DNA of 61,010 bases, the filler included, from Deltaproteobacteria bacterium (GTDB lineage Bacteria > CG2-30-53-67), in the NCBI GenBank assembly GCA_013151235.1. It is 4 parts of 4 records of this genome, joined end to end, with 100 filler letters (N's around TTAATTAATTAA, not from the genome) between each part and the next. Parts side by side here need not be neighbours in the genome. Positions count along the whole stretch, not along the records: positions 49,263 to 61,010 come from JAADIO010000037.1; 3 more parts are not named here. The stretch is one strand, 5' to 3'. The notes below the pieces were generated by a model, which saw only the letters and a list, made by a program, of their open reading frames with translations, did no database searches and was not told where the DNA came from. The position numbers were made by a program, and so were the translations under genes. This document shows, in pieces, positions 15,044-61,010 of this stretch. Position 1 is the stretch's first letter. Each line of letters begins with the position of its first letter.

Positions 15044-15202
15044 GAAGTTATACGGAGATAGAAGAACCTCCTCGGATACCCTGTTCGTCAGGACGAGCGG
15101 GAGAGCCGGGTGGGGTTGTTGAATTATTCAGGATGAAATCGGATCGATCCGGGAGGTGATGCCGGGAAGAAACTTGTAACAGACATCGATATTTGACGGT
15201 AA

Positions 15203-15289
15203 ATTTACCGACAAAGGCAAACCATCCGCGAGGGTGAGGCGCAAAGCTACCTGCCTGGTATCCAGGTCGAGGGGCTACCGAAGTAAGTT
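15203..15289 (+). ncRNA. c-di-GMP-I (GEMM-I) riboswitch
   Basis: AAAGGCAAACCATCCGCGAGGGTGAGGCGCAAAGC...GGCTACCGAA matches GEMM architecture; G at the position-20 equivalent indicates c-di-GMP rather than cGAMP. Confidence 0.88.
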
Positions 15290-15322
15290 CTTGCAATAAA
15301 TGGTATTGTAAGATCCGGATCA

Positions 15323-15466
15323 GCCGAACCAAGTTTGTTTTTGAGGTTCGGCGTTTTTTTTGCTTGTGGCGAAGCCGAACCTGTTTGCTCTTTGAGGTTC
15401 GGTTATTTTTTTGATGCTTGTGGCGAGGCCGAACCTGTTTGCTTCTTGAGGTTCGGCATTTTTTTT
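15323..15466 (+). terminator. Three tandem terminator-like hairpin + U-tract units (about 52-nt period)
   Basis: GCCGAACC..GGTTCGG(C/T) followed by a T-run, starting at 15323, 15374 and 15428. Confidence 0.75.
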
Positions 15467-15475
15467 GAGGGCATT

Positions 15476-18400
15476 ATGAAAAAACCAGTCACCAAAATAA
15501 AACAGATCGGGTTGTTGTTTCTGGCCTTCTTCCTTTTATCTTTTCTGCTGATTCCATCATTAAATACGGTGCGACACAACGAGGATTCCTCCCTGAATGT
15601 TGATGCCGTAAACCTGGGGCATAAAACTCCGGTCTCTTCCATGAAAGACCGGACCCGAGTCGATTCGTCCCGGAAAGAAGAATCTGTTCCGCCGGCCCCG
15701 GAAACCCTGCAGGTGGATTTGAGGAAGAATCCGGGGGACACGGCTGCGGCGGGTAAACGCCCCAAGGCGAAACCTTATGTCGAGCATGAGATCCTGGTCC
15801 GTTTTGCATCGAAGGTTTCCCCGGCAAAACTGACGGAAATCCTGGCCGATCATGATATGACCGTGGTCCGGATGTTGATGGGGAATCACCTCGCTTTTGT
15901 CCGGCTTCCTGAAACCCGGAGTGTTGCCGAGGCGGAGCGGATCCTGCGGAAGGTGCCGGGGGTCCTTTTCAGCGAACCCAATTATATCGTCCACACCACG
16001 AGCATCCCCGATGATTCCTCCTTTTCCAACCAGTGGGGATTTCAGAACACCGGCGCAGGCGGCGGGACGAATGATGCCGATATCGATGCCGTCGAGGCCT
16101 GGGACAAATCGACCGGTTCCTCTTCTATTGTGGTGGCGGTTGTCGATGAAGGGATCGACTACACCCATCCCGATCTTGCCGGCAATATCTGGACCAACCC
16201 GAACGAGATTCCCGGGAATGGAATCGATGATGACGGAAACGGCTTTATTGATGATGTACACGGCTGGGATTTCAATCACAATGATGCTACGACCTATGAC
16301 GGGGCGAGCGAAGACCGGCACGGGACGGAGGTCGCCGGAGTCATCGGTGCGGTGGGAAACAACGGTGTCGGCGTGGCCGGGGTCTGCTGGAATGTCCGGA
16401 TCATGTCGGTGAAGTTCATCTCCTATGGGAACGGGACCGTGGCCGATGCGATTTCCGCACTCGAATATGCCGCCAAGGAAGGGGCCCGGGTCGTGAATTG
16501 CAGCTGGGGCGGTACTTCCTATTCCGCCGCACTGGAGTCGGCCTTTCGTGATCTGGAAAACGCCGGTGTTTTAGTGGTGACCTCGGCCGGAAACAGCGGA
16601 AAGAATACCGATCTCTCTTCCCACTATCCTTCCAATTATGATCTTCCGAACATTATTTCCGTGGCCGCCACCGACAGAAACGATCTGTTGAGCTCCTTTT
16701 CCAATTACGGGGTGACGACCGTCGATCTCGGAGCACCCGGTTCTTCCATTTATACGACAGCTCCGGGCGGGAACTATGCTTATTTCAGCGGGACTTCGGC
16801 GGCATCCCCTTTCGTGACCGGGGCTGCGGCCCTGGCTCTTTCCGTTTTTCCCAATCTGACCTACCAGGAGTTGAAGGACCAGATCCTGAATCATGTTGAT
16901 CCCATTGCATCCCTGACGGGAAAGACCGTGACCGGCGGCCGTCTGAATGTGAACAATCTGGTCTCAGCGCTTTCGAACGGAGATTCCGATGGGGACGGCA
17001 TGCCCAACGGTTTTGAAAGCCGGTACGGGCTGAATCCTTTGGATGCCTCCGATGCGAATGCGGATGCCGATGGTGACGGGCTCACCAATCTGCAGGAGTA
17101 CCGGGACGGCACCTCTCCTGTGAACAAAGACAGCGATGGGGACGGCCTCTCCGACGGTTTTGAGGTCACTTATCACTTGGATCCGACCGATGCTTCCGAT
17201 GCTTCCAAAGATCTGGATGGAGACGGTCTGTCGAATCTGACGGAATATGAGGCGGGAATGGCGGTTAACAACGTTGATTCCGATCACGACGGGATCGACG
17301 ATTTCACGGAATACGGTCCCCGGCAGTTTGCCTCCGATTCGGACGGTGATGGGATCATCGATGCCCTTGATACCGATTCCGATAATGACGGACGTCCGGA
17401 TGCAGAGGAAGGAACGGGCGACGATGATAACGACGGTATTGCAAATTATGTCGATATGAACGACAGCGACGGGCCCTCCGGCGACCAGGATGGAGACGGT
17501 CTTTCCAATTCGCTGGAGGTTACCTACATGTTCTATCCGAACCGGGTTGATTCGGACAATGACGGGATCGATGACCGGACGGAATTCGGCCCGAACGCAA
17601 CCCCTCTCGATACCGATGGAGACGGGATCTATGATGCCCTGGATACGGATTCCGACAATGACGGCAAAACGGACCTTTCCGAGGGGACCGGTGATTCCGA
17701 CGGGGACGGGGTCCCGAATTACAGGGATAGCGACGACTCCGACGGTCCCGTCGGGGATGCCGACGGCGATGGTCTTTCGAATCAGCTTGAAGCACGGTTC
17801 GGTTTGAACACGAACCTTGCGGACAGCGATGGAGACGGGATCTCCGATGGTGAGGAATTCGGGACGGGTGATCTTCCGCTGGATACCGACGGGGATGGAA
17901 TCATCGACGCCCTTGATACCGATTCCGATAATGATGGCGCCCTTGATATAAACGAAGGGGATCTGGACTCGGACGGCGACGGAATTCCCGACCGGCTCGA
18001 TGCGAATACGGCGACCCTGTTAACGGGGTCCGGCGCCCTCTCGCTGATTCTCGGAAAGGGTGCGCGTCTGAAAGATGTTCTCTTTATCGCCCGGCCCCGG
18101 GCGGAAGCCGACATTCGGAATATCGATTTTCCTTATGGCGGGGTACAGTTCAAGGTAAGCGGGCTTGAGCCCGGTGCCGCTGTGACGATGACCCTGAAGA
18201 CTTCCGCCGTGCTTCCTTCGAATGCCGAATACTGGAAGGAGGATGGAAACGGGAATTATGCCCGGTATGATGCGGTCATTAACGGCAATACCCTGCAGTT
18301 TGTTCTGACCGACGGTGGAACCGGAGATAACGACGGTGTGGCGGATGGTTCCATCAGCGATCCCGGTTACATCGGGATTCCGGTGGCGGCCGAAAGTCCC

Positions 18401-18586
18401 TCCGTTTCCTCCGGCGGAGGCGGCGGAGGCGGTGGGGGCGGCGGAAGCGGTGGGTGCGCTCTCTCCACGCAGCCGGTGCCGCCGGAAAATGGATTGATCG
18501 ATCTTGTTCTTCTCCTGCTGCCGCTCGGTTTTCCAGCAACGCGGCGTCTTAGCGTTTTACTCGGCCACAAGCGGTTCCGGTCCTGA
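15476..18586 (+). CDS. Secreted S8 (subtilisin-family) serine protease with DxDxDG Ca-binding repeats, a choice-of-anchor-U-like domain and a Gly-rich/Cys/TM C-terminal sorting signal
   Basis: Catalytic triad VVDEG, HGTEVAG, SGTSAASP; hydrophobic N-terminus; many DSDGDG repeats; LTDGG.GD.DG..DG.I.DPG; GGGGSGGC..hydrophobic..RR tail. Confidence 0.9.
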   Translation: MKKPVTKIKQIGLLFLAFFLLSFLLIPSLNTVRHNEDSSLNVDAVNLGHKTPVSSMKDRTRVDSSRKEESVPPAPETLQVDLRKNPGDTAAAGKRPKAKPYVEHEILVRFASKVSPAKLTEILADHDMTVVRMLMGNHLAFVRLPETRSVAEAERILRKVPGVLFSEPNYIVHTTSIPDDSSFSNQWGFQNTGAGGGTNDADIDAVEAWDKSTGSSSIVVAVVDEGIDYTHPDLAGNIWTNPNEIPGNGIDDDGNGFIDDVHGWDFNHNDATTYDGASEDRHGTEVAGVIGAVGNNGVGVAGVCWNVRIMSVKFISYGNGTVADAISALEYAAKEGARVVNCSWGGTSYSAALESAFRDLENAGVLVVTSAGNSGKNTDLSSHYPSNYDLPNIISVAATDRNDLLSSFSNYGVTTVDLGAPGSSIYTTAPGGNYAYFSGTSAASPFVTGAAALALSVFPNLTYQELKDQILNHVDPIASLTGKTVTGGRLNVNNLVSALSNGDSDGDGMPNGFESRYGLNPLDASDANADADGDGLTNLQEYRDGTSPVNKDSDGDGLSDGFEVTYHLDPTDASDASKDLDGDGLSNLTEYEAGMAVNNVDSDHDGIDDFTEYGPRQFASDSDGDGIIDALDTDSDNDGRPDAEEGTGDDDNDGIANYVDMNDSDGPSGDQDGDGLSNSLEVTYMFYPNRVDSDNDGIDDRTEFGPNATPLDTDGDGIYDALDTDSDNDGKTDLSEGTGDSDGDGVPNYRDSDDSDGPVGDADGDGLSNQLEARFGLNTNLADSDGDGISDGEEFGTGDLPLDTDGDGIIDALDTDSDNDGALDINEGDLDSDGDGIPDRLDANTATLLTGSGALSLILGKGARLKDVLFIARPRAEADIRNIDFPYGGVQFKVSGLEPGAAVTMTLKTSAVLPSNAEYWKEDGNGNYARYDAVINGNTLQFVLTDGGTGDNDGVADGSISDPGYIGIPVAAESPSVSSGGGGGGGGGGGSGGCALSTQPVPPENGLIDLVLLLLPLGFPATRRLSVLLGHKRFRS

Positions 18587-49262: not shown

Positions 49263-49269
49263 CAGAAGT

Positions 49270-49899
49270 GTTATGTAAGAAGGAGACTTTACGAAGTTCT
49301 GAAACACCAGACATACTGGCCGTCACCGTCACCTTCTACCTTAGTTATGTAAGAAGGAGACTTTACGAAGTTCTGAAACAATTGGCTTTTGGCAGGGATT
49401 CGCCGGCAGTGCCACCCAAGGTTATGTAAGAAGGAGACTTTACGAAGTTCTGAAACCCCCTGAGCGTCACTGTTTCGCCCACCTTGTGCCGAGTTATGTA
49501 AGAAGGAGACTTTACGAAGTTCTGAAACATTTGTTTGGGAGGATTATATGAGCCCTCAGATCTTTAAAGTTATGTAAGAAGGAGACTTTACGAAGTTCTG
49601 AAACGAAACATTGTTTTGGCGTATTTTTTCGCTATTTTTTCTGTTATGTAAGAAGGAGACTTTACGAAGTTCTGAAACGTTTCAAATTATTGTCAAAAAG
49701 ACAATAGAGCAGGGGAGTTATGTAAGAAGGAGACTTTACGAAGTTCTGAAACACCTTTTTGGCGCAGGTGGTGCTTCAGAAACTTGATGTTATGTAAGAA
49801 GGAGACTTTACGAAGTTCTGAAACGGAAACATAATCCAGTGGTTGGTCATCTCCCCAGCTTTGGTTATGTAAGAAGGAGACTTTACGAAGTTCTGTTCA
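49270..49899 (+). CRISPR. CRISPR array: 9 repeats of 36 bp GTTATGTAAGAAGGAGACTTTACGAAGTTCTGAAAC, 8 complete spacers of 36-41 bp, truncated at contig start
   Basis: Repeats start at 49270, 49344, 49421, 49493, 49569, 49643, 49717, 49789 and 49864; the last ends TTCA instead of AAAC (trailer end); spacers are unique. Confidence 0.98.
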
Positions 49900-50230
49900 G
49901 TATTCTCCGTACAATTTAAAGAAGAAAAATGTCTTAGTGGCTCTTGTTCGTAAGCGCAGTGTTGTGTAGGTGCACAGAACGGCCTCTTTTTGTTTCCATT
50001 CCTGTCGTTCTACATATCACATATAGCAGGTTTTTTATCCCTTTTCCCCCGATAAAACCCTCCACTGTGTGTTTCAATCATCCCTGTTTCGTGTAATTCT
50101 TCTGCGGTGTACGTATCAATGTCCTTTTTCTCATGCAGGCAGGATGGGAACGCAAGGGGAGAGGGCGCCAATTTTTGTAACTGCAGGGCGATTGCGTCAT
50201 GCAGTGCAAACAGTGTAAAGGAGGAGGTCC

Positions 50231-50428
50231 ATGAAAAAGTTTTATCTGTTCGGGTTGATACTGGGATCCGCCGTTATCATGTCCTGCGCTCCTGTGACGG
50301 TTTCGAAGTGCAGAACGGACTACACCTACGACGGCGATAAGGTCCAGAGTGAGTACCGGGAGTGCATTACCCAGACGCCGGAAAAGATGCCGCCGATTCA
50401 CCTGAAGCATCAGGAACTTTATGAATAG
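50231..50428 (+). CDS. Small hypothetical lipoprotein
   Basis: GGAGG ribosome-binding site; MKK-hydrophobic-IMSC lipobox. Confidence 0.65.
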   Translation: MKKFYLFGLILGSAVIMSCAPVTVSKCRTDYTYDGDKVQSEYRECITQTPEKMPPIHLKHQELYE

Positions 50429-50521
50429 TTGGTGGTCTTTCAGGGGAAAGGGGGTGATCCTTTCTGAATCCCCCTTGGTCCCCCTTCAGCGAAGGGGGAG
50501 GTGGTTTAAGGAGAGATTGAT

Positions 50522-50887
50522 ATGAAAAACGTGCTTGTGATCCTGCTGGTCCCATTGTTGTTCTGTGCCTGCGCGACGGCGGGGAAAGAGATCGACCTGA
50601 CCACGGTCCACGACAAAATCAGCGTGAACCAATCGACGAAGGAAGACGTCCGGGCACTCTTTGGAGAGCCCCTTTCGAAGAGTTTTGATGCCGAGAATGA
50701 AAGCGAGATCTGGCACTATGCCTATGTGAAAAAGAATATCACCGGGGCCGGCCTGATCGAGCACACCTTCCGGATCGGATCGGAATGGAAGACGAAGACC
50801 TCGGTCGTTGATTTCTATTTCCGGAAGGGTGTCGTTGTCGACATCAAGAGCGAAAGCTCGCAGACGAAGAAATTCCATCTCCAATAA
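50522..50887 (+). CDS. SmpA/BamE-like lipoprotein
   Basis: Lipobox FCAC; STKEDVRALFGEP, W.YAY pattern. Confidence 0.7.
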   Translation: MKNVLVILLVPLLFCACATAGKEIDLTTVHDKISVNQSTKEDVRALFGEPLSKSFDAENESEIWHYAYVKKNITGAGLIEHTFRIGSEWKTKTSVVDFYFRKGVVVDIKSESSQTKKFHLQ

Positions 50888-51284
50888 TCCGCATCTGAAG
50901 CGATTACTCCGGTTTATCCCTCGCCCACACGGGTATTCCAGGGGCGGATCCTGATCCCTGGAATACCCGGAGACAACTCTTTTCTCCATTCATATCCCGG
51001 ATTTTCAGATTGATCTTTGCTCTCCGGTTTTCCCCGGAAAATTTTCGCGGGGAGAAACAAAAGTCCTCTTTTCCCCGTCTTTATATCAAGAATTTCATGA
51101 TTCATTTTGCAGGTGGCACTGGACGTATCAAGGTTCATGGCCGGGGTGATTGCATTTCGAAAGTAGAGATCGGAACCCTGTCTGTGTCTTATCCCAACGA
51201 AAAGGAGGTGAGTACGCTTATACGGTTTGTCCCATTTGGGACTTGTGTGTTTAATTAAAACGAAGAAACAGAAAGGACGATGTT

Positions 51285-52055
51285 ATGAAGACACTGTGGA
51301 TTGCAGTACTCTTTCTCTTCGGAAGCGTTACAATGGCGAATGCCGTACCTCTGGCAGGCGGGCTGGGTGGAACGGCAGGCTACGGCGAGCATCAGCTTGC
51401 CGACAACGATGACGGATCGACGTCTTTCATAGATCTTTCATCGGTTTTCGATAACGGCATGAATTTCTACGGAACGACCTATACCGGGCTTTACCTCAAC
51501 AACAATGGTAATGTGACGTTCTCTGCCCCGTTGTCTACGTATACTCCATACAGTATGACGGGATCGACCGCCAACCCGATTATTGCTCCTTTCTTTGCGG
51601 ATGTCGATACAAGGGGAAGTGGAGACGTCTATTGGGACGAAGATACGGTGAACGGCATTTTTACGGCCACATGGAATGCCGTTGGTTATTTTTCGTACCA
51701 TACAAATCCTCTGGATTCGTTCCAGTTACGGTTGATCGATCAGGGTGGCGGCGACTTTGGCATCGAATTCAGATATGCCTCCCTGGGATGGACCGTAGGG
51801 GATGTGAGTGGCACGGCGTATGCCAGGGCCGGCTACAATTCCGGCAATGGGACCGATTATTACGAGCTGCCGGAATCAGGGAATAATGCCGCCATGCTCG
51901 ATCTGGTCAACAGGAGCAATGCCGGGACGGATGGTCTGTTTCAATGGCAGGTCAGAAACGGCAACCCGGCGCCGGTCCCCGAACCGGGCTCTATGGCTCT
52001 GATGAGCATCGGCCTCGCCGGCCTCTTCTCCCTCCGCAGGCGGCAGGCTGCCTGA
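51285..52055 (+). CDS. Nidogen-like (NIDO) domain PEP-CTERM protein
   Basis: Signal peptide; NDDGS, NNNGNVTF, IAPFFADVDTR, FQLRL; VPEPGSMALMSIGLAGL..RRR. Confidence 0.9.
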   Translation: MKTLWIAVLFLFGSVTMANAVPLAGGLGGTAGYGEHQLADNDDGSTSFIDLSSVFDNGMNFYGTTYTGLYLNNNGNVTFSAPLSTYTPYSMTGSTANPIIAPFFADVDTRGSGDVYWDEDTVNGIFTATWNAVGYFSYHTNPLDSFQLRLIDQGGGDFGIEFRYASLGWTVGDVSGTAYARAGYNSGNGTDYYELPESGNNAAMLDLVNRSNAGTDGLFQWQVRNGNPAPVPEPGSMALMSIGLAGLFSLRRRQAA

Positions 52056-52437
52056 TCCCTTCGGACCGGGGTTCACAGTCGCAAACGGACCGGCATCTCC
52101 GGATGCCGGTCCTTCCTGAACCCTGCGTCAAATGAGCCCCCGGTTTTTCAGGGTATGACCCTTTCCGGGGGGGCGATTCCTTCCAGTTCCTCCATTGTGA
52201 ATTACGAATCAAAATGTTTTCTCTCATTTCAGCCCCTTTCCCGGAGCCGGGAACGCCCTGTATCCATCCCTCTGTTCCGGCAGCGTAATCCTTTATGAGA
52301 AAGATTTTGAAAAAGATGACGGGTTATGATAAATAATGTTATCTTTCTGTTGACGGCAGGCCGGTCATTGTCGGCGGAGGATAGGATAAGAGTAAGCTTG
52401 GTTATCGTTTTGAAGGATGTGTAGTGGAGCCGATTTT

Positions 52438-54192
52438 ATGTTCTCCATAGAGAAGCTGGACGCGCATCATATCCTTGCCCAGATCGGCGAGGATGTAACG
52501 GTCATGGCCTCCGAGGGACGTCTCCCAGCTTTTTTCGGGAGGGAGGAGGAGCTTGCCCGGATGGTCAAGATCCTCGGGCGGAGGCGGAAGTGCAATCCCC
52601 TGATCCTGGGGGGGGCCGGTGTCGGGAAGTCTTCCCTTTGTTATGCCCTGGCCGACCGGATCGTGAAGGGGAAGGTTCCTCCCTGGCTGGTTGGCCGCAA
52701 GGTGATCCGGACGAGCTTCTTCGAGATATGGGGTTCTCTTCTCCATTCGGATGAGGCCTTTGCCGAATATGCAAGGATCCTCAAAAATGTGCTGAAGCAG
52801 TGCCGGGAGAATCCGGTTATCCTCTTCATGGACGAGTTCCATACCCTGGTGAACTTTCCCGTCAGCTCCAATGTGATCAAGCCCGCTTTGGCCGACGGTT
52901 CCCTCCACATGATCGCTGCGACGACCCTTCGTGAGTACCGGCGAGATCTTGAAGGGGACGAGGCGCTGACCCGCCGTTTTGTTCCGATCATGCTGGATGA
53001 ACCTTCTCCGGCGGAGACCCGGAGGATTCTTTCTTCTTTGAAGAAAAGTTATGAAGAAGACTATCCGGTTTCCATCGGGGATGATTTTGTGGACGAGGTG
53101 GTGGATCTGACGGAGACCTATCTGCCGGGGCGCAACCAGCCGGACAAGTCGATCGATCTTCTCGAACTCTCCTGTATAGAGACGGTCTATGATCGTTTGA
53201 ATGGAGGGGGTGGCGGGGAGCGGATGTCTGTGACCGAGGATACGGCACACCGGGTGATTTCATCAATGACGGGGATCCCGGAGGAGATCGTGGCGGGGAA
53301 GATGGACCGTCTCGAAAGTTTGACGAAGCTGCTGTCGGATCGTTACTCCGGGCAGGAGGAGGCCTTGAAGCCTATCGCTTTTCGCCTGGCTTTGACCAAG
53401 TCGCGGGTGGGAATCGACGCGCACCGGCCCGACGGCATCTTCCTCGTGGCCGGTGAACGGGGCTCGGGAAAAACGGAACTGGCAAGAACTGTAGTTGATT
53501 TTCTCTCAGAGGACCCGGAAGAGGATTTCCTCTCCATCGATATGGAGGTCTATGGTGACTTTCATTCCTTCGTAATGTTGATGGGAGGAGGTCCGGGGCG
53601 GTCTTCTCTCCTGAGCGAATTTGTCCGGAACCGGCCGACCGGTGTGATCCTTCTCAGAAATTTCGACCGGGCGGACAAAAAGGTCCTGTCGATTCTTCGC
53701 CAGATCTTTGAAACCGGGAAAGGACGGGATTACCAGGGGAAAGAGCTAGTTTTCGATCATGTGACCTTTTTCCTGACGACGAGGGTCGGTTTCGAGGAGA
53801 AAAAGCCGATCGGAATTGTTTCAGAGTGTGAAAATGTGGCGTGGGAACAACAGGAAGATGCCGTGCTGGATGGACTTGGTGAGGTCTTTCCGGAGGATTT
53901 TCTTTCTTCCGTGGATGAGCTGATCGTGCTGAAACCGGTTTGCGAAGAGATGATTCGCTCCCTTCTGGATAGGAAGATAGAGGCCTGGTCCCGCCAGGTC
54001 GGAAAGACCCTTCGAATTGAACAGCTTTTGAAAGACCTTCTTCTGGAAATCCTCGTCAAGGAAGAGTCTCCCGCTCATGCTCTTTCCCGCGTATTCGACC
54101 GGGAAGTGGGAGAGGACCTTCTGCGATTGCGGAGAAGCCGGGAGTGGGAGGAACTCGAATCGGTGGAGTTGAAGCGGGACGGTGAGGCTTAG
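52438..54192 (+). CDS. Clp/Hsp100 (ClpA/C-like) AAA+ ATPase lacking the N-domain, with a degenerate second ATPase module
   Basis: GREEE, NP.ILGGAGVGKS, LFMDEFH, D.AL.RRF, R.QPDKSIDLL; D2 GERGSGKT but Walker B reads ILLRNF. Confidence 0.85.
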   Translation: MFSIEKLDAHHILAQIGEDVTVMASEGRLPAFFGREEELARMVKILGRRRKCNPLILGGAGVGKSSLCYALADRIVKGKVPPWLVGRKVIRTSFFEIWGSLLHSDEAFAEYARILKNVLKQCRENPVILFMDEFHTLVNFPVSSNVIKPALADGSLHMIAATTLREYRRDLEGDEALTRRFVPIMLDEPSPAETRRILSSLKKSYEEDYPVSIGDDFVDEVVDLTETYLPGRNQPDKSIDLLELSCIETVYDRLNGGGGGERMSVTEDTAHRVISSMTGIPEEIVAGKMDRLESLTKLLSDRYSGQEEALKPIAFRLALTKSRVGIDAHRPDGIFLVAGERGSGKTELARTVVDFLSEDPEEDFLSIDMEVYGDFHSFVMLMGGGPGRSSLLSEFVRNRPTGVILLRNFDRADKKVLSILRQIFETGKGRDYQGKELVFDHVTFFLTTRVGFEEKKPIGIVSECENVAWEQQEDAVLDGLGEVFPEDFLSSVDELIVLKPVCEEMIRSLLDRKIEAWSRQVGKTLRIEQLLKDLLLEILVKEESPAHALSRVFDREVGEDLLRLRRSREWEELESVELKRDGEA

Positions 54193-54209
54193 CACGGGCT
54201 GGACGATTT

Positions 54210-55205
54210 GTGAAGATTATGGCAGGGAAACAAAAAAAACGGGATCAACGTCTATTGGAAGAAGACCTGCAACTCGTCCGGAATATGACGGATGAAAACA
54301 AAGAGGTCCGGGAAGAAGGATGGCGGATATTCTATGAACGGTATTATGCTGTACTGGAACGTAAAATTATCAGCTCGCTTCGGAATGGATATATGGTTGA
54401 TAAGGCCTGGGACTCTTTTCTTGACCGGATCATGAGAAATGACTTTGAGAATCTCAGAAAGTATGAAGGCAGGGGGTCGCTGGCAAGCTGGCTGTATCAA
54501 AGTCTGGCTTGGGCGATGAAGGATGTTCTCAGAAAAGAGGGAAAACTGTCGGCAGGGTCGGTCTCTTTTGAGGATGTGCAAAAGGTGATTCCGGAGGATA
54601 CCGCAAAGGATGGTCATATTGACGAGGATGCTGTGATGGCGAAGGATGCCGGCCGATCTTCTCAGAGGAGGCCTGAGCCTGAGTGTGGACCCAATCAGGG
54701 AAATGATCTGGAGAATGATTTGCGTGTTGCCTTCAGTCAACTTCCTGATATGGAGCGGTGGGTTTTTTCCCTTCGTCATTATGATGTGCTCGGGTTTCCT
54801 GAGGATGAGATCAGAAAGCTGGCTCAGTATATAAATCGCGATGCTGTTGAGGTGGCAGCGATGATTGATGATATTTTCCTCGACGGGGACCTCCTTTCCG
54901 GAAAACGAGAAAATGTAATGAAAGCGGAGGAAAAAGCGGTCCGTGATTTTTCTCGTCGGTTGGCTGCGGAATCGGAGCGATACATCGAATTGGAAGTTGA
55001 GGAGACTCCAGCACCGGACAATGAAGTGAAGACTGAAAACAAGTCGCAATCCGGGAAGAAAAGAGTGCCGGCCCTGATCAAAACACCTTACGATGTGATC
55101 AGTGGAATCCTCCAGGGAAGGAATGTGTCAACATTGCACGGTGATGTACGAAAGGCGAAAAATAGACTGAAACAGTTTCTGCAGGAAGAGGGATATAACA
55201 TTTAG
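54210..55205 (+). CDS. Divergent ECF-like sigma-70 family factor
   Basis: Region 2-like W..FYERY..L...YEGRGSLASWL....KD.LRK; region 4-like FSQLPDMERWVFSLRH..., Y..ISGIL..NVSTL..DVRKAKNRL, with an insertion. Confidence 0.7.
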   Translation: MKIMAGKQKKRDQRLLEEDLQLVRNMTDENKEVREEGWRIFYERYYAVLERKIISSLRNGYMVDKAWDSFLDRIMRNDFENLRKYEGRGSLASWLYQSLAWAMKDVLRKEGKLSAGSVSFEDVQKVIPEDTAKDGHIDEDAVMAKDAGRSSQRRPEPECGPNQGNDLENDLRVAFSQLPDMERWVFSLRHYDVLGFPEDEIRKLAQYINRDAVEVAAMIDDIFLDGDLLSGKRENVMKAEEKAVRDFSRRLAAESERYIELEVEETPAPDNEVKTENKSQSGKKRVPALIKTPYDVISGILQGRNVSTLHGDVRKAKNRLKQFLQEEGYNI

Positions 55206-55215
55206 AGAGTCTGCC

Positions 55216-55632
55216 ATGATCAGAGAATATGAACCACCGGAACATCCTTCCCGAAAGTCTTGGGAAGAATTTATCGAGAGGGAAGGATATCTGGAGGAGA
55301 ACTCTCAAGAGATGATGCACATCCAGGAGTGTCGGGTGTGCCGTGAAAGGGTTTCCCAAATCCTTGAAGGGGATCGTTTTCTCCTGGACCGGCTTGCAGA
55401 TGCCCTCCATCCTGAAAGGATGATCGATCCGGAAAAGGGGGAAACCTGTTTCGAAACGAAAGATCTATGGGACTATACGGCCTGGCGATTATCCCGGGAT
55501 GCCGGGGATGAGAGAGCCGATTCCTCACCGGAGAAATATAGTTTTTTTGATGATCATATCAATGAATGTGATCGTTGTCTGAAAGAATTTCGAAGAATCC
55601 GTAAGATCCAGAGCCGACTCAGGAATTCCTGA
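55216..55632 (+). CDS. Soluble protein with two zf-HC2/ZAS-like motifs (putative anti-sigma factor)
   Basis: H...HIQECRVC and C...HINECDRC; directly downstream of the sigma gene; no TM helix. Confidence 0.65.
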   Translation: MIREYEPPEHPSRKSWEEFIEREGYLEENSQEMMHIQECRVCRERVSQILEGDRFLLDRLADALHPERMIDPEKGETCFETKDLWDYTAWRLSRDAGDERADSSPEKYSFFDDHINECDRCLKEFRRIRKIQSRLRNS

Positions 55633-55647
55633 TCCTTCCCTTTCCTT

Positions 55648-55722
55648 GCAGGGGGCCTTACGGCTTCCTGCTTCTTGTCATGATTTTCTGCTCCAAAAGG
55701 CCCCAATCGGGGTCTTTTTTTT
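55648..55722 (+). terminator. Two hairpins, the second with a U-tract, ending the Clp-sigma-anti-sigma operon
   Basis: GCAGGGGGCC..GGCTTCCTGC; AAAAGGCCCC-AATC-GGGGTC-T8. Confidence 0.7.
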
Positions 55723-55903
55723 CTTCTGAAAAAATCTTCCGTGAAACATTTTCATTCTTTTGCACGTCTTACGAATGAATTCGTGAGTGTCCAGAAACGA
55801 AAATGCCATTTATAGCCGATATTGTGACCAATCAAAGAAGGAGGAGCCGTCCATCGTGAGTTTATCGGAATATCTCGATCTATATAATCCTTATGGAGAT
55901 TTT

Positions 55904-56257
55904 GTGGATGAGGAGGATTGCGTGCTTCGGGATTTCGGGGAACGGTTGCGCATACTGCGCAAAAAACGGTGTCTGACGCAGCAGATGTTAGGGGAACGGG
56001 CCGGGGTTTCCTACAAGTACCTGGGAGAGATCGAGCGGGGAGAGAAGAACCCTTCCGTGACGATTCTCTTCAAACTGGCGGCGGCGCTGGAAGTGAATCC
56101 GGCCGAACTGGTCTGCGTCCTCGACGGAGGCTGTGCCGACTGTCATTATTCACGGGTGCAGTTGCGGCGGGTCAACGAGATCCTGATGGAACGGGATCCC
56201 GAGACGTTGAAGCGGATCGTCCGGGTCTTGACGGTCTGGTTCGGGGAGGAGAGATGA
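55904..56257 (+). CDS. XRE-family HTH transcriptional regulator (start uncertain: 55787, 55904 or 55922)
   Basis: FGERLRILRKK..LTQ..L.E.AGVS..YLGEIERGEKNPS. Confidence 0.9.
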   Translation: MDEEDCVLRDFGERLRILRKKRCLTQQMLGERAGVSYKYLGEIERGEKNPSVTILFKLAAALEVNPAELVCVLDGGCADCHYSRVQLRRVNEILMERDPETLKRIVRVLTVWFGEER

Positions 56258-57267
56258 AAAAATTTGTTTTTGTGGTGCATCCCCGGAATTATGAGGATGT
56301 GGTGCGAGTATTTCCGTTTTTCAGGTATCTTCCGGAAAAGGCGGTTGTACGGGGAATCCGCCTGACCCGTCCCTTTCCCCGGTTATGGCTCTGTTCCTCC
56401 TTCGATGTGCTGGGGAAGGTGAGAGGGCATATCCTTGCTGCTCCCCTGACGGCGGAACAGATGCTGACCCGGAATCTGCGGGAGGTTCGGAGGGTGATTC
56501 TCCATACCGTCCTCTATGCTCAGGAAAAACTGCGGGCGGAGGTGATCGGGCTCGGGGCGCTCACCGCCTCAGTGACGAACGGCGGAAAGTGGCTGGCGAA
56601 GCGTTCGGAGGTCCGGGCAGCGGTCACCCACGGTGATACCTTCGCCGTGGCGGTCGCCATGGAAGGAATCGGGGCAATCCTCCGGAAGAAGAGGGGGGCC
56701 GTCGCTGTGACGGGCGCGACCGGGATTATAGGCAGCGCCCTCGCCCGGCTCCTTGCAAAGAAGGACCGTCCTCTCATTCTCCTCGGACGCAACCGGCGAA
56801 AGCTCAAGAGCCTGGCCGCCGGACTCAACGGCGTCCGGAACCTGACAATCTCCACCGATCTTGCTGTTTGCCGGGGGGCGGAGATTGTGGTCGCCGCCAC
56901 CTCTCATTCGGATACGATCCTGAAGGGGGAACACCTGCGGAAGGGGGCGGTGATCTACGACGTCTGTCAACCCGAAGCGGTTTCGTTGGTACTCCTCCGA
57001 AAGAGGCCGGACCTCGTCCGGATCGACGGCTCCCTTGCCGCCATTCCCGGGGTTGACCCCGGCTTTGCGATGGGACCGCCGAAGGGTACGACTTTTGCCT
57101 GTCTGGCGGAGACCATGCTCCATGCGCTGGAGGGGAAACGGGAAGACCGCGTCGGGCCGATCGATGCGACCCATATCGATAATCTCCGGACGGCAGGGAA
57201 GAAGTACGGTTTTGTACATGCGCCGTTTACCTGTTTTGGCCGGCCCTTGAATGGGAAGCTACATTAG
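56254..57267 (+). CDS. NAD(P)-dependent oxidoreductase, COG5322 / acyl-ACP-reductase-like
   Basis: F.FVVHP, GLGALTA, THGDTF, Rossmann VAVTGATGIIGS, FACLAETM; ATG overlaps the XRE stop. Confidence 0.75.
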   Translation: MKKFVFVVHPRNYEDVVRVFPFFRYLPEKAVVRGIRLTRPFPRLWLCSSFDVLGKVRGHILAAPLTAEQMLTRNLREVRRVILHTVLYAQEKLRAEVIGLGALTASVTNGGKWLAKRSEVRAAVTHGDTFAVAVAMEGIGAILRKKRGAVAVTGATGIIGSALARLLAKKDRPLILLGRNRRKLKSLAAGLNGVRNLTISTDLAVCRGAEIVVAATSHSDTILKGEHLRKGAVIYDVCQPEAVSLVLLRKRPDLVRIDGSLAAIPGVDPGFAMGPPKGTTFACLAETMLHALEGKREDRVGPIDATHIDNLRTAGKKYGFVHAPFTCFGRPLNGKLH

Positions 57268-57415
57268 ATTTCCTTCGGTAGGTGTGTTTCCTGAAAGGAG
57301 GGATCGGGATGGATGTGTAACCTGCCGGATTTTTACGGAGGTGCAGGTTGGAGAAATGGATGATCGGGGAGCCGACGGGGATGATCACGGTCCAAACGTC
57401 CGCGACAGGAGGAAA

Positions 57416-58084
57416 ATGATGAGCAAAGAGGAATCATCAAAGAACCACAAGGATCTAAAGGAACATGGGATCATCTATCTTGCCGGCGGCATTGACGAAA
57501 GCCTTTCGGAGAATGTGTGCAAGGAAATCATCGAATACAATATTTCCGGGAAAGTCGAGTGTATCCAGATGATTATCAACTCCCACGGCGGCAGTTGTAC
57601 GGATGGATTCGCCATTATCGATATCATGGAGTGGTCCCGCCTTCCTGTCTATACAACCGGGATCGGTATGATCTGTTCCATGGCTCTGCTGATTTTCATG
57701 ACAGGGGCTAAAGGGCGGCGGGTCATTACTCCCAGGACCTCCATATTGTCTCACAGGTATTCAACCAAGACGCAGGGAAACCACAGCCAGTTGCTGGCGG
57801 ATCGGAAAGAGCAGGATCTGATGCATGAGCGGGTTGTGGATCATTATCTCCACAACACCCATATTGATACGAGAGAGAAATTGGAGGGATATCTCCTCCG
57901 GGATGTGGATACCTGGCTTTCAACCGGGGAGGCGCTTGAATACGGCATCGCTGACATCGTAGAGCCGTTGAGCCGGGACGGGCTTGAAATAAAAATGAAA
58001 AAGAAGACTTCCGGGAAGAAAAAGAAAGACAGGAAAGATACGGATAAAACACCGGTCTTGTTCGGAAGGCAGGTGCTGGGTTAG
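57416..58084 (+). CDS. ClpP-family protease (divergent paralog)
   Basis: IYLAGGID, INSHGG...G.AI.D.M, G.ICSM (Ser), G..GRR, SILSH (His), DTWLS..EALEYG.AD; AGGAGG ribosome-binding site. Confidence 0.88.
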   Translation: MMSKEESSKNHKDLKEHGIIYLAGGIDESLSENVCKEIIEYNISGKVECIQMIINSHGGSCTDGFAIIDIMEWSRLPVYTTGIGMICSMALLIFMTGAKGRRVITPRTSILSHRYSTKTQGNHSQLLADRKEQDLMHERVVDHYLHNTHIDTREKLEGYLLRDVDTWLSTGEALEYGIADIVEPLSRDGLEIKMKKKTSGKKKKDRKDTDKTPVLFGRQVLG

Positions 58085-58095
58085 ATCCGGGATGT

Positions 58096-59145
58096 TTGCC
58101 TTACAGAAAACTGACTGACGTGGAGGTGCGGGTGGAAGAAAAAGTGAGAACGTTATTCCGTGAAATCGAGTGTTGCCGTGATGCATTCATGGACTGCGAG
58201 AGGATGTCTCAGGATCTTCCCATTCATGCAGTAAAGGGGTATGTCGACTGGGTGCTGGAGGGACTTCTCGATGTCTGTGGCGATTATGAGAGAAAGTACG
58301 GCAGGAATGTTGTGCAACTGGAGGTGGTCCGGGAACGATTTCAGAAAGAATTCTTCTCAATCGATGCGATAGGCCGGAGTCCTTTCCTGCGGCAGTGCTT
58401 CCTCAAGCCCTATGGTTATTCCGGTGATTTCAGAACGATCGACATGATCTACCGGAACCGGCCTGCTCCGGATGGTGTGGTAACCCATGTGGAACGCTTC
58501 GCATATGATGCACCTGCCTGCCGTGCCGTACGGAACCGCAAAGAGTTTCTGAAAGAGAAAGTCCGGGAAGAAAAGTGCATGAAGAGGGAACTTTCGATCT
58601 TGAATCTCGCATCAGGGCCTGCTCGTGAGATCGCCGAGCTGGCCGAAGAAGGGACCCTGGATGAGAACTGCCGGGTGATCAACATCGACCATGAACCGGA
58701 GGCTCATGACTATGCCATGGGACTTCTGAACGGGGTGACGAAACAGACCGGGATAGACTACATTGTGGAAGACGCCTATCGTTTCTCCCTGCGGAAGGAC
58801 AACCTCGACCGCTACGGCGCACAGGACCTGATCCTCTGCGCCGGACTCTTCGACTATCTCGATGATGCCTGGGCCGTCCGGGTGTTGCGTGCGCTTTTTG
58901 CGCTTCTCCGGGAAGACGGGATTCTGATCGTCGGGAATTTCAGTCATGAAAATCCGTCGAGGACACTCATGGAGTGGTTCGCCGATTGGAAACTGATCCA
59001 CCGTGATGAAGAGACCTTTGCCGGGCTCTTTCGAAAGGCCGGGATCACCGATATGGTCATTGAAAAGGAGTCTCTCGGGGTCAACCTCTTCGGTGTCGCG
59101 GGAAAAGGCTCAACCGTGAAACCTTTTCCGGATGATGCCGCTTGA
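58096..59145 (+). CDS. Class I SAM-dependent methyltransferase, PhcB-like
   Basis: KPYGYSGDF..IDMIY, AVRNR, ILNLASGPARE, AGLFDYL, GNF...NPSR..MEW..DW.LIHR. Confidence 0.75.
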   Translation: MPYRKLTDVEVRVEEKVRTLFREIECCRDAFMDCERMSQDLPIHAVKGYVDWVLEGLLDVCGDYERKYGRNVVQLEVVRERFQKEFFSIDAIGRSPFLRQCFLKPYGYSGDFRTIDMIYRNRPAPDGVVTHVERFAYDAPACRAVRNRKEFLKEKVREEKCMKRELSILNLASGPAREIAELAEEGTLDENCRVINIDHEPEAHDYAMGLLNGVTKQTGIDYIVEDAYRFSLRKDNLDRYGAQDLILCAGLFDYLDDAWAVRVLRALFALLREDGILIVGNFSHENPSRTLMEWFADWKLIHRDEETFAGLFRKAGITDMVIEKESLGVNLFGVAGKGSTVKPFPDDAA

Positions 59146-59182
59146 GGGTATCTATAACGATCAACATTTCCAATGAAACTGC

Positions 59183-59662
59183 TTGGAAGCAGGGAGGCGG
59201 CCGGTGGAACGAAGCAATCCGCAACAATCCATTTTACGGATTCTGTTCGTGGAGGACAACCTGGAGCGGGAGAAGATCTTCCGTTCATGGCTGCCGGATG
59301 ACATTTTGCCCGTCTTCGCCGTCAGCGCCGGACAGGCCCTCGGGGTGATCCGGCGGGACCGGGGACGGGTCTACGCCGGAATCGCCCTCGATTTTGATCT
59401 GCCGGAAAGAGCCCGGACCAGTGATGACAAGTACCGAAGCGGCCGGGATGTGATGAAGGCGATCATGCAGTTTATCCATAAAGATACGGCGATCCTTGTT
59501 CACTCCATGAATTCGAGCCAGTCTGTTTCCGTGGCGAATACCCTCTCCGGCGCCGGATTTGCCGTGGACCGAATCCCCATGGCCTTGCTGACCCGGGGAC
59601 GGTTCCATGACTGGATTGATTATGCCAGGGAGATCTGGTCGGACCGGCAGGAGGGGGAATGA
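59183..59662 (+). CDS. Atypical receiver domain, cyclic-phosphate-processing REC (cREC)-like
   Basis: RILFVEDN..R, LDFDL, SG.DV, ILVHSMN; lacks the canonical KP motif. Confidence 0.7.
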   Translation: MEAGRRPVERSNPQQSILRILFVEDNLEREKIFRSWLPDDILPVFAVSAGQALGVIRRDRGRVYAGIALDFDLPERARTSDDKYRSGRDVMKAIMQFIHKDTAILVHSMNSSQSVSVANTLSGAGFAVDRIPMALLTRGRFHDWIDYAREIWSDRQEGE

Positions 59663-59851
59663 AGAAGAGAAGATGGGAATTTTCGGGCTGGCCGGCATCG
59701 GCGCGACGATGTAAACGATTTTTTCTGACGGATCCGTCGCAGGGAAGGTGCGGGAGGCCCGGACCCGGAACCGTCCGGAAGAGGGGATGGCTGTCGTCTT
59801 TCAGACGGCTGACGGTTCCCGGACCGTGATTGATTGCAGAGGAGGATTGTC

Positions 59852-60373
59852 GTGAAGGAACTGTACGGAACATTTTCCGAATGGCTCGATATTGTTGATG
59901 ACCGGGACCGGGTCGTCGGACGGATGAGGCGGGCGGAAGTCTATCGATTCGGCCTGACGAATTTCCGGGTTGTCAATGCATTTCTGGAAAACGCCGAAGG
60001 GAAGCTCTGGATCCCCCGCCGGACGGCAGAGAAGAAACTGATCCCCCTGGGTCTCGATACGAGTATGGGGGGCCATGTTAAGAGTGGTGAGACCTATGAG
60101 GAGGCCTTTGCCCGGGAGTTACAGGAGGAACTCGGTCTGGAGTTGATGAACGTCAATTGGAACGAGATCGGCTATCTTTCTCCCCACATGGACGGAGTCA
60201 CTGCCTTCATGAAAGTTTACCGTATTGAGATGGACAGCACACCCCCCTATAATCGTCATGACTTTATCGAAGCCTTCTGGCTGACCCCGAAGGAAATCCG
60301 GAAGAAACTCAACGAGGGGGATTGCGGCAAGGATGATCTTTCACGGCTACTGGACCGGTTTTATGGAGATTGA
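59852..60373 (+). CDS. NUDIX hydrolase (IPP-isomerase/YfcD-like)
   Basis: LDIVD..D.VVG, RR...K...P..LD...GGHV..GETYEEA..RELQEELGL. Confidence 0.9.
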   Translation: MKELYGTFSEWLDIVDDRDRVVGRMRRAEVYRFGLTNFRVVNAFLENAEGKLWIPRRTAEKKLIPLGLDTSMGGHVKSGETYEEAFARELQEELGLELMNVNWNEIGYLSPHMDGVTAFMKVYRIEMDSTPPYNRHDFIEAFWLTPKEIRKKLNEGDCGKDDLSRLLDRFYGD

Positions 60374-60631
60374 GAGGATTTCAAAAGGGATCATCGAATA
60401 GATTGAGTCATTGGCATTTCTGCAAAGAATAATCAGATGAGATGCCCCGATGGGGAGAAGTCGGGTCGCGTGTTCGCAGAGTCTGTTTCAATCACCCGGG
60501 GAAAGGTTTTGGCTTTTTCCGTGTCTTGAAGACCTTCAATGCGTCGCTCTGGAAAATGGATCCTCGACAGGAGGATTCCGCCTATATAAGCGTCTTCTTT
60601 CGAGATGACAAGCTTCCAAGGCTTGGAGGTG

Positions 60632-60804
60632 TGTAAATATTTTCCACAATCGTGCAAAACTTTTCACAATAGTGGAAAATGTTTTCCCTCTCCACCGACA
60701 TAACGGTCTTGCCTGGAGCCTTCATTTCAGGCAAAAAACCCGCTTTTATAAAGGGTTATCTCTTTTATGGGCCTTTCAGAGAAAAAGAGGTATAAATATT
60801 GCTT
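60632..60804 (+). promoter_or_regulatory. Putative sigma-54 promoter (60788-60804) with upstream enhancer boxes (TGT-N11-ACA at 60632-60648)
   Basis: AGGTATAAATATTGCT fits GG-N10-GC; TGTAAATATTTTCCACA plus two related boxes extending to about 60688. Confidence 0.55.
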
Positions 60805-60878
60805 GTAATTGAAGGGGGGGTATGACTTAATCCTTTACAAGGAAAATTACGGAAAAGGGGGGGCGAGGAGGAAGAGCC

Positions 60879-61010
60879 ATGAAAAAGATTATCGGAGTTA
60901 TTGTTGCGTTTGTTGTTTTGTGCCTCTTTTCTGCCGTTTGGCAGGCGGAGGCGATCCCGTTCCCGGGGTTATTGAAGTTCAACGGTACCAACACTTGGTG
61001 GTGCCAGGAC
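60879..61010 (+). CDS. Secreted protein, N-terminal fragment (possibly PEP-CTERM)
   Basis: GAGGAGG ribosome-binding site; MKKIIGVIVAFVVLCLFSAVWQAEA-IP signal peptide; runs off the window. Confidence 0.65.
   Translation, partial: MKKIIGVIVAFVVLCLFSAVWQAEAIPFPGLLKFNGTNTWWCQD

Follow-up and report, generated by a model that had tools for sequence, protein, structure and literature searches.

A putative sigma factor switch with a two-headed zinc anti-sigma protein and a degenerate Clp-like ATPase in a deltaproteobacterial genome

We analyzed a 61,010-nt stretch of DNA (the window) from the genome of a Deltaproteobacteria bacterium (assembly GCA_013151235.1), and we focused on three adjacent genes that encode a Clp/Hsp100-like ATPase, a divergent sigma factor, and a small protein with two zinc-binding anti-sigma (ZAS) units. 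We think it somewhat probable that these genes form a sigma switch, in which the ZAS protein is the inhibitor, the ATPase is the input, and the output is a downstream operon that encodes an XRE-family regulator and a ClpP paralog, with promoters of the form AACA-N16-CGTCT. In such a switch, the two ZAS units would together clamp regions 2 and 4 of the sigma factor (sigma2 and sigma4) as well as an insertion within sigma4, and all of this would take place in the cytoplasm. The ATPase would fill the role of a TPR-CHAT protease that is found in relatives of this system. Most likely, it would remove or destabilize the anti-sigma and so free the sigma factor. The ATPase might act alone, as a remodeller that is driven by the first of its two AAA+ modules (D1), or it might act while docked on a housekeeping ClpP via an IGI tripeptide in one of its loops. 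The freed sigma factor would then read AACA-N16-CGTCT sites before the operon (which encodes the XRE regulator, a reductase-like protein, the ClpP paralog, and a methyltransferase), before a gene for a NIDO/PEP-CTERM protein, and possibly within its own gene.

At least four contigs have been joined to make up the window, with runs of N flanking six-frame-stop linkers (TTAATTAATTAA) at positions 12526, 35586, and 49207. Because the joins at these linkers are artificial, nothing to the left of 49163 may be assumed to be adjacent to the three genes. The contig of interest is 49263-61010 (11,748 nt). On this contig, the open reading frames (ORFs) for the ATPase, the sigma factor, and the ZAS protein are separated by gaps of just 17 and 10 nt, and terminator-like hairpins lie behind the third gene (Table 1). 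The first-pass annotation of the window, which was made from the sequence alone, had described a tight three-gene run closed by terminators that encodes a Clp ATPase without an N-domain or M-domain, a 331-aa divergent sigma factor, and a soluble 138-aa protein with two HxxxCxxC motifs. Each part of this description held up, and the ATPase turned out to be more degenerate than was first noted.

That the 331-aa protein is a divergent sigma factor of the extracytoplasmic function (ECF) type is well supported by its predicted fold. At the level of sequence, no Pfam family matches the protein, including Sigma70_r2 and Sigma70_r4, and when we compared a profile of the sigma to the PDB, using sequence only, the best match was SigH, with E = 0.8. 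A word-based search of 5.8 billion proteins returned only the protein itself and one relative (57% identity). A profile search with HMMER, against 1.84 billion representatives, found 29 proteins with E <= 1e-3 (20 of them with E <= 1e-10), and nearly all of these are 300-350 aa long. Our alignment of the family (A2) includes the window protein, P0002, and 22 of the 29 profile matches; the self-hit and six short or weak rows were omitted. Pfam’s Sigma70_r4_2 weakly matches 14 of the 24 rows of this alignment.

We used A2 to build an AlphaFold2 (AF2) model of the sigma, which has a predicted local confidence (pLDDT) of 78.5. When we compared this model to known structures with Foldseek, the top rows were all ECF sigma factors (1or7, 5zx2, 8z6g, 4nqw, and 5wuq), with probabilities of about 1 and with E values of 0.0065-0.1, which are above the tool’s line of 0.001. 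Structural alignments with VIA-align indicate that the sigma2 fold is present: region 2 of sigmaE (4lup_A) aligns over 89 residues with Z = 9.8 and a root-mean-square deviation (rmsd) of 3.0, and SigK (4nqw_A) aligns over 84 residues, within 18-110 of the model, with Z = 9.7 and rmsd = 1.9. The helix-turn-helix (HTH) fold of sigma4 is also present, in interrupted form. Region 4 of sigmaE (2h27_D) aligns over 69 of 69 residues with Z = 8.5 and rmsd = 1.6 Å, and 3vfz_A aligns over 62 of 62 residues (166-326 of the model) with Z = 7.7 and rmsd = 1.7. The 69 aligned residues of 2h27_D are spread over residues 162-330 of the model, so sigma4 contains an insertion of about 100 residues. In the AF2 model, the insert is made up of helices (198-225), one long helix (230-264), and a stretch that is disordered. 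From end to end, the protein has an N-terminal helix, sigma2 (approximately residues 17-116), a disordered linker (115-163), and a sigma4 that is split by the insertion (approximately 198-293).

The 138-aa protein has two HxxxCxxC motifs (H35-x3-C39-x2-C42 and H114-x3-C118-x2-C121), which are invariant in 11 of 11 aligned sequences (alignment A4). The alignment also identifies two full sets of zinc ligands: H10, H35, C39, and C42 in unit 1, and C78, H114, C118, and C121 in unit 2. (The first of these ligands is a histidine in the window protein and a cysteine in its relatives.) The protein has no transmembrane or hydrophobic segment (the best 19-residue mean on the Kyte-Doolittle scale is 0.34) and no CHAT domain. 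Pfam’s zf-HC2 does not match the window protein at E <= 0.01; homologs from three metagenomic loci (L005, L011, and L008) match with 29-35 bits, as compared to a cutoff of 22.2.

The pairing of the sigma gene with the ZAS gene is conserved. Our scan of metagenomes with A2 yielded 20 loci. Four of these (L018-L021, with E from 1e-7 to 6e-4) were excluded from the family counts, and in three of the four (L018, L019, and L021), the sigma-like ORF encodes 187-192 aa, which is the ordinary size of an ECF sigma factor. Among the 16 loci that we retained, 12 have at least 300 nt of sequence downstream of the sigma gene and could be assessed. Because some of these are copies of the same element, they represent about 8 independent elements. 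A two-motif gene lies directly after the sigma gene in 11 of the 12 loci, and the same is true of L001, a contig from a sister genome (G001) that we discuss below. L013 is the exception; it stops matching L008, its otherwise identical twin, midway along the sigma gene, and it is probably a chimera of the assembly. In the proteins from relatives, the HxxxCxxC motifs are at around residues 30 and 98, and the N-terminal 115 or so residues are homologous to the 138-aa protein. Complete proteins from relatives have 272-288 aa, with an additional beta-rich domain at the C-terminus and, again, no transmembrane segment. The ATPase gene is next to the pair only in the window and in L001, and no cas gene is among the neighbors that we annotated in L005, L008, and L011.

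A structural prediction for the sigma:ZAS complex, which used A2 and A4, also agrees with the first-pass pairing of these proteins. The interface score (ipSAE) for the complex is 0.84, as compared to 0.01 for the best of three controls, and part of the 0.84 may be due to memory or likeness, because sigma/ZAS complexes have already been solved. (The mark for this score is reached by 58 of 80 solved complexes and by 2 of 110 mismatched pairs.) The model runs share at least 77% of their contacts, and the pLDDT of the partner is at least 78. The ZAS protein is predicted to contact residues 34-79, 167-250, and 289-331 of the sigma, which correspond to sigma2, to sigma4, and to the insertion. The tightest predicted pairs join unit 2 of the ZAS protein (residues 115-129) to helices of the insertion (198-220). 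We know of no solved counterpart for ZAS contacts with a sigma4 insertion.

It is well supported that the 138-aa protein is the cognate zinc-type anti-sigma of the 331-aa sigma, with the binding itself being a prediction of the model. The sigma/tandem-ZAS pair is real, and it is a member of a small family that is apparently undescribed. In the literature on CHAT proteins and anti-sigmas, on ECF classification, on caspase-like CHAT proteins with ECF sigmas, and on degenerate Hsp100 proteins, we found no sigma factor with a tandem ZAS protein and a cytoplasmic CHAT protease or Clp ATPase. Similarly, the terms “TPR”, “AAA”, “tandem”, and “CHAT” do not occur in part of the text of the ECF re-classification (PMC7826278), whose supplements list the contexts of the groups.

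In the relatives, the anti-sigma gene is usually followed by a gene for a protease. Eight loci have sequence in that place, and in 6 of them, what comes next is a gene for a HEAT-TPR-CHAT protein (about 910 aa; Pfam CHAT, E = 2e-68 and 3e-58). These CHAT proteins have no transmembrane segment. The other two loci (L008 and L009) are one element and have instead a convergent gene for a 1130-aa fusion protein (10499-13891 on the − strand of L008), which combines a Clp-type AAA_2 domain, a receiver-like (REC) stretch, an FtsH-type AAA domain, and an M41 peptidase; there is no CHAT gene there. The window’s module and L001 do not have a CHAT gene either. In both, the gene for the Clp-like ATPase is directly 5' of the sigma gene, and in L001, its stop codon overlaps the start codon of the sigma gene. 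Because the relatives nearly always add a protease gene, the family apparently needs a third partner, which is proteolytic or remodelling. By analogy, this lends indirect support to the idea that a protease or an AAA+ component gates the sigma switch.

The closest known system may be DdvS/DdvA from Myxococcus xanthus, which, in the passages of PMC11506125 that describe it, consists of an ECF sigma and a ZAS-TM-TPR-CHAT anti-sigma (TM is a transmembrane segment). In both systems, a sigma of ECF type would be held by a ZAS domain that contacts sigma2 and sigma4, and TPR-CHAT is also present in the distant relatives of the window’s system. However, DdvA is described as a single transmembrane protein with one ZAS and a periplasmic CHAT domain, while here we see separate cytoplasmic proteins and two ZAS units. 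Also, unlike DdvS, the window’s sigma has an insertion in sigma4; CHAT is replaced by a Clp-like ATPase; and there is no link to genes for CRISPR or for CBASS (antiphage systems that signal by means of cyclic oligonucleotides). The relatives therefore appear to be a split, cytoplasmic version of the DdvA-type CHAT/anti-sigma theme. Near another relative (L011), the genes downstream of the sigma, ZAS, and CHAT genes (12537-15782) encode two vWA-like proteins, a Ser/Thr kinase with an FHA domain, and a zinc-ribbon protein. These look like genes for signaling or from conflict systems.

The window’s ATPase is a shortened and degenerate member of the Clp/Hsp100 family. The closest database entry is 100% identical and has 584 aa, a length that would fit a start at 52438. 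The models for ClpA, ClpB, and ClpV match with 294-321 bits, far below their cutoffs (for ClpA, 293.6 bits as compared to 993). The match covers positions 164-715 of the 734 in the ClpA model, and residues 149-387 and 504-823 of ClpB. Clp_N does not match the ATPase, and alignments to ClpA and ClpB begin at about residues 175 and 149, respectively. Because the ClpA match starts at 164 and ClpB 387-504 is skipped, both the N-domain and the M-domain are missing. D1 retains its Walker A motif (GVGKS), its Walker B motif (DE), and its RR fingers. As the first-pass annotation had noticed, a KKPIGIV segment lies at the position of the ClpP-docking loop: it aligns with the VGF-containing loop of ClpC, with IGI opposite VGF. 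In the AF2 model of the ATPase (pLDDT 83.1), the only internal segment with pLDDT below 50 is residues 462-473, which holds the IGI. Flexible ClpP-docking loops usually show up as low-confidence segments in such models.

This ATPase belongs to a family of proteins of about 600-650 aa that lack both the N-domain and the M-domain (P0033-P0051, alignment A3), and none of the members has canonical pore motifs. (One of them is labeled as being from an archaeal metagenome-assembled genome, or MAG.) The Walker B motif of the second AAA+ module (D2) decays stepwise within the family, from DE in distant members to ED in P0033, EN in P0034, and RN in the window’s ATPase. The ATPase has four close relatives, if we count itself, and the next ones are P0033 (55% identity) and P0034 (51%), followed by P0035-P0051 with 30-40% identity. 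Like ClpA and ClpC, it has two AAA+ modules in the order seen in ClpA, an AAA_lid_9, and a tripeptide of the IG-hydrophobic type in a flexible loop of D2. It differs from them in scoring below the curated cutoffs, in having no N-domain, and in having lost its pore motifs and D2 catalysis (see below). By analogy to NSF, it looks like a pair of rings in which D1 is active and D2 is structural. Judging from its sequence, it may dock on a ClpP, and it is unlikely to be a classical processive unfoldase. We have moderate confidence that the ATPase is the input device of the switch, given the position of its gene, the tight coupling to the sigma gene, and the analogy with the CHAT protease.

There is a precedent for a Clp/Hsp100 ATPase acting on an anti-sigma factor: in Mycobacterium tuberculosis, the anti-sigma RseA is degraded by ClpC1P2, as stated in parts of PMC11173970. 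In both cases, the ATPase would act on a cytoplasmic anti-sigma of the zinc type and would free an ECF sigma. In contrast to the window’s ATPase, ClpC1 is a general housekeeping protein whose gene lies at another place in the genome, and it has an N-domain, pore loops, and activity in both of its rings. The window’s ATPase is encoded within the operon, has neither an N-domain nor an M-domain, lacks the canonical pore tyrosines, and has a dead D2.

The sister genome G001 provides a close comparison for the module. Its contig L001 (4.2 kb, from a MAG) has the same gene order as the window, NIDO-ATPase-sigma-ZAS. The window and G001 are 88% identical for NusA, 86% identical for the ATPase, and 84% identical for the NIDO protein. 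In contrast, the ZAS proteins are just 59-61% identical, and the sigmas are 57% identical overall, with 80% identity in the sigma2 region, 25% in the linker, and 43% in the insertion. In other words, the regions of the sigma/anti-sigma interface are evolving much faster than their neighbors. When we searched the DNA of G001 with 49904-61010 of the window, we recovered 51493-55619 and otherwise only a few fragments of 40-55 nt, and searches of its proteins found no homolog of the reductase-like protein and no ClpP with over 28% identity. These absences are only suggestive, because the MAG is incomplete and L001 stops 23 nt past the ZAS gene. Among 13 genomes from the phylum of G001, orthologs of the sigma and the ATPase are found only in G001 itself, and for the ClpP paralog, 12 of the 13 genomes have only matches of 26-31% identity.

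We compared the regions upstream of orthologous XRE genes in the window and in L005, and a shared element surfaced. The window’s XRE gene leads the downstream operon, which is translationally coupled (the ATG of the reductase-like gene overlaps the XRE stop codon), and its product is 39% identical, over 113 aa, to the XRE protein whose gene follows the CHAT gene in L005. The XRE gene is a candidate for a conserved target of this sigma family. In the window, the element AAACA-N16-CGTCT occurs three times, each time on the + strand of this contig, as compared to an expectation of 0.05 sites (0 of 100 shuffles reach 3). Among the metagenomic loci of the family, L009, L013, and L014 repeat the element in L008 and were dropped from the motif statistics, which left 97 kb of non-redundant sequence. 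CAACAT-N15-CGTCT occurs 4 times in these loci if exact matches are required (200 block shuffles average 0.06 and never exceed 2) and 8 times if up to one mismatch is allowed (mean 1.6), and 7 of those 8 are on the strand of the sigma gene. The core that the sites share, AACA-N16-CGTCT, occurs 11 times (500 shuffles average 0.69 and never exceed 5). There are no exact matches to CAACAT-N15-CGTCT in 134 kb of other loci and no matches to AACA-N16-CGTCT in 184 kb of other DNA. Across the 2.9 Mb of the G001 genome, AAACA-N16-CGTCT occurs 3 times, as compared to 5 times for a control pattern; the site on contig C250 does not have a convincing gene downstream and is probably due to chance. The spacing between AAC and CGT is typical of ECF promoters, and the sites are strikingly clustered.

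The sequence suggests that the site at 55744 is a candidate for a sigma-dependent promoter of the downstream operon. Because the motif sits in front of it, the operon with the ClpP paralog is more likely to be an output of the switch than an input. The NIDO/PEP-CTERM gene is another candidate member of the regulon. Its 5' region of about 200 nt (51055-51285) includes the motif and a small hairpin (51229-51242) and is a possible regulatory leader. The site at 54228 lies within a stretch of 57 nt, spanning the start of the sigma gene, that is 100% identical between the window (54200-54260) and L001 (2775-2835), while the surrounding block is about 79% identical. This site may be an autoregulatory or internal promoter, or it may reflect an alternative isoform. 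There is no AACA-N16-CGTCT before the ATPase gene, which fits with an input that is expressed independently of the sigma. A sigmaE-type pattern upstream of the ATPase gene (GGAAC-N16-TCTGT) is not significant, with 1 occurrence in the window as compared to 0.30 expected (28 of 100 shuffles reach 1). TGAAAC-N16-18-CGTC is not significant either, as it occurs once in the window with 0.37 expected.

The ClpP paralog in the downstream operon is not a housekeeping ClpP: it matches TIGR00493 with 74.3 bits, as compared to the equivalog’s cutoff of 308.6, and the best model for a subfamily gives 102 bits, as compared to 228. Its Ser, His, and Asp align with the catalytic triad of solved ClpPs, as had been supposed. 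A 221-aa database entry that is 100% identical fits a start at around 57419. The alignment to solved ClpPs begins only at residues 13-20, so the N-terminal gating region is unmatched. The clade of this paralog has 587 proteins (E <= 1e-10, among 748 candidates), and the best 120 are 63-75% identical and about 190 aa long. Named members are from Desulfobulbaceae, Desulfobacteraceae, Geobacter, and Thermodesulfobacteriota, and the clade is widespread in metagenomes of the Desulfobacterota type. The paralog has a Lys-rich tail at its C-terminus. We also considered whether this region (a 449-aa ORF, a ClpP-like ORF, and a 349-aa ORF) might be a phage set with a portal, a head protease, and a capsid protein, and we rejected this idea: Pfam and PHROGs identify them as a Rossmann reductase, a ClpP, and a methyltransferase. 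As first read, the 449-aa ORF was too long; the real reductase-like gene starts at 56254.

Several observations weigh against the switch as we have described it. The sigma does not reach any curated threshold for sigma factors, as TIGR02937 matches with just 21.7 bits, below the cutoff of 42.9. In D1 of the ATPase, the pore motif KYR is replaced by EAF, with alanine at the position of the tyrosine and a phenylalanine next to it, and in D2, the five residues that hold the GYVG of the pore are deleted. D2 also has RN instead of the DE of Walker B, arginine instead of the sensor-1 asparagine, serine instead of the arginine finger, and histidine instead of the sensor-2 arginine. Because the pore motifs are missing and the catalytic residues of D2 are lost, classical threading of substrates is doubtful. 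The ATPase is linked to the sigma/ZAS pair in two closely related genomes only, so this linkage is weak evidence for a shared function. The assembly of G001 does not contain the proposed output operon. Finally, we derived the promoter motif after the fact, from the very loci in which it was then counted, and it is concentrated in L005 and in the window’s lineage, and one of its three sites in the window is inside the sigma ORF.

How else might these genes work? The first-pass annotation had proposed that the ATPase and the ClpP paralog are a private pair, that is, a dedicated protease of the ClpA/ClpP type that degrades the ZAS protein and thereby releases the sigma. The two genes are on one contig, just 3.2 kb apart, and both the triad of the paralog and the IGI of the ATPase (in a disordered loop, at the position of the VGF in ClpC) are consistent with this. 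We consider it improbable, because the two terminators, the XRE gene, and the reductase-like gene stand between the three-gene operon and the ClpP gene, which belongs to a separate operon led by the XRE gene. Also, the clade of the paralog is large and conserved while the ATPase and the sigma are rare, which argues against a co-evolved pair. G001 keeps the ATPase, sigma, and ZAS genes, yet neither a ClpP above 28% identity nor DNA from the downstream operon was found there, and 12 of the 13 genomes from its phylum have only similarly distant matches. At the level of the proteins, the paralog’s gating region is unmatched to solved ClpPs, and the ATPase has neither the pore tyrosines nor a working D2. 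A different possibility is that the sigma and the ZAS protein are a self-contained switch that senses redox state or zinc, of the RsrA/RshA kind, and that the ATPase is a chaperone-like passenger or a stress protein with no role in gating. ZAS proteins that are soluble and respond to the oxidation of thiols form an established class, and the window’s protein is soluble, with eight conserved Cys/His ligands in two units (CHCC and HHCC). Linkage to the ATPase in just two sister genomes would also fit. The targeting of ZAS domains by reactive oxygen species is mentioned in a passage of PMC11506125. On the other hand, a protease gene has been added in 6 of the 8 loci from distant relatives, both genomes show a tight coupling between the ATPase gene and the sigma gene, and the ATPase is about as conserved as a housekeeping protein (86% identity, as compared to 88% for NusA). 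We view a self-contained switch as unlikely but worth keeping in mind.

The nearby CRISPR array raised the idea that the module serves a (type III) CRISPR-Cas system as an accessory, comparable to CalpL-CalpT-CalpS or Csx29-Csx30-CASP-sigma. The array was correctly placed by the first-pass annotation: it has nine repeats, it is on the same contig, and it ends about 2.5 kb upstream of the module. Also, the TPR-CHAT protease in relatives is the protease type of Craspase. But among the larger ORFs that we scanned (not every ORF) on this contig and on the window’s other contigs, there is no cas gene, and the ORFs that we scanned on this contig have no CARF, SAVED, Lon, or CHAT domain. The last repeat, which is degenerate, is at the end of the array nearer to the module; a leader, and cas genes if there are any, would therefore be on the far side, off the contig. 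G001 has the module, and the CRISPR repeat was not found there; and the annotated neighbors in L005, L008, and L011 do not include a cas gene. A link to CRISPR thus seems very improbable. The known cascades, which are described in parts of PMC10028731, resemble the proposed switch in that a sigma is sequestered by a partner that a dedicated protease removes. They differ in that here, we found no cas genes, no domain for sensing cyclic oligoadenylates, and no homology to Csx30 or CalpT, and the partner is a classical ZAS anti-sigma.

If the ATPase does gate the sigma, then it is tempting to place this module in a broader scheme. The undescribed family would be wholly cytoplasmic, with a sigma4 insertion on which the anti-sigma docks, a tandem ZAS inhibitor, an interchangeable releaser (usually a caspase-like TPR-CHAT protease, and here a non-threading or D1-only Clp protein that acts as an “anti-anti-sigma”), a promoter type of its own, and possibly feedback from the operon via the IGI loop. 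We regard this scheme as speculative, and we doubt that all of it will prove correct. More broadly, sigma/anti-sigma switches that are gated by proteolysis are a major principle of signaling and a recent theme in CRISPR-linked immunity. This locus points to a small and rarely sampled family of sigma factors with a split sigma4 and a two-headed zinc anti-sigma. The partner protease has apparently been exchanged during evolution, which offers a natural experiment on how a switch is rewired. A degenerate Clp/Hsp100 ATPase that retains a docking-type loop would be a test of whether Clp-family rings can act without classical threading. With a sigma, its inhibitor, and a candidate promoter motif in hand, the system can be tested directly, and it could serve as an orthogonal regulatory part.

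Table 1. Features near the sigma/ZAS genes. Positions are within the window.
Feature	Position	Strand	Evidence or comment
CRISPR array, nine 36-nt repeats, last degenerate	~49270-49903		~2.5 kb upstream of the module; begins at the contig edge
AAACA-N16-CGTCT	51055-51080	+	~205 nt upstream of the NIDO/PEP-CTERM gene
Secreted NIDO-domain protein with PEP-CTERM anchor	51285-52055	+	Pfam NIDO 3.9e-30, PEP-CTERM 2.8e-07
GGAAC-N16-TCTGT, sigmaE-type	52250-52275	+	Upstream of the ATPase gene; conserved in L001
Double-AAA+ Clp/Hsp100 ATPase, 591 aa	52417-54192	+	Pfam AAA_2, AAA, AAA_lid_9
Divergent ECF-like sigma factor, 331 aa	54210-55205	+	AF2 fold, Foldseek, VIA-align
AAACA-N16-CGTCT	54228-54253	+	5' end of the sigma ORF, 36 nt after the ATPase stop codon
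Soluble tandem ZAS anti-sigma, 138 aa	55216-55632	+	Two HxxxCxxC motifs, homology, complex model
Two intrinsic-terminator-like 10-bp hairpins	55648-55671, 55695-55718	+	3' of the ZAS stop codon; the second has a T run
AAACA-N16-CGTCT	55744-55769	+	Between the terminators and the XRE gene, which are 68 nt apart; closely resembles the L005 XRE site
XRE-family HTH regulator	55787-56257	+	Pfam HTH_3 1.3e-15; likely start 55856, behind an AAGGAGG ribosome-binding site
Acyl-ACP (acyl carrier protein)-reductase/PigE-N-like Rossmann protein	56254-57267	+	Family matches
ClpP paralog	57416-58084 (possible earlier start 57251)	+	Pfam CLP_protease 118.4 bits, cutoff 20.2
SAM (S-adenosylmethionine) methyltransferase	58096-59145	+	Starts 11 nt after the ClpP stop codon

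A scan of the contig with Rfam gave no match. PADLOC did not assign the sigma, the ZAS protein, or the ClpP paralog to a defence system, and for the ATPase, it reported generic AAA matches only. Beyond the methyltransferase gene, 59183-60373 encodes a receiver-like protein (a weak match to cREC_REC, E = 1.7e-4) and a NUDIX hydrolase that is similar to YfcD and isopentenyl diphosphate (IPP) isomerase. On a different contig, 15335-18586 of the window encodes a 1083-aa subtilase with a fervidolysin-like prodomain and TSP3 repeats.

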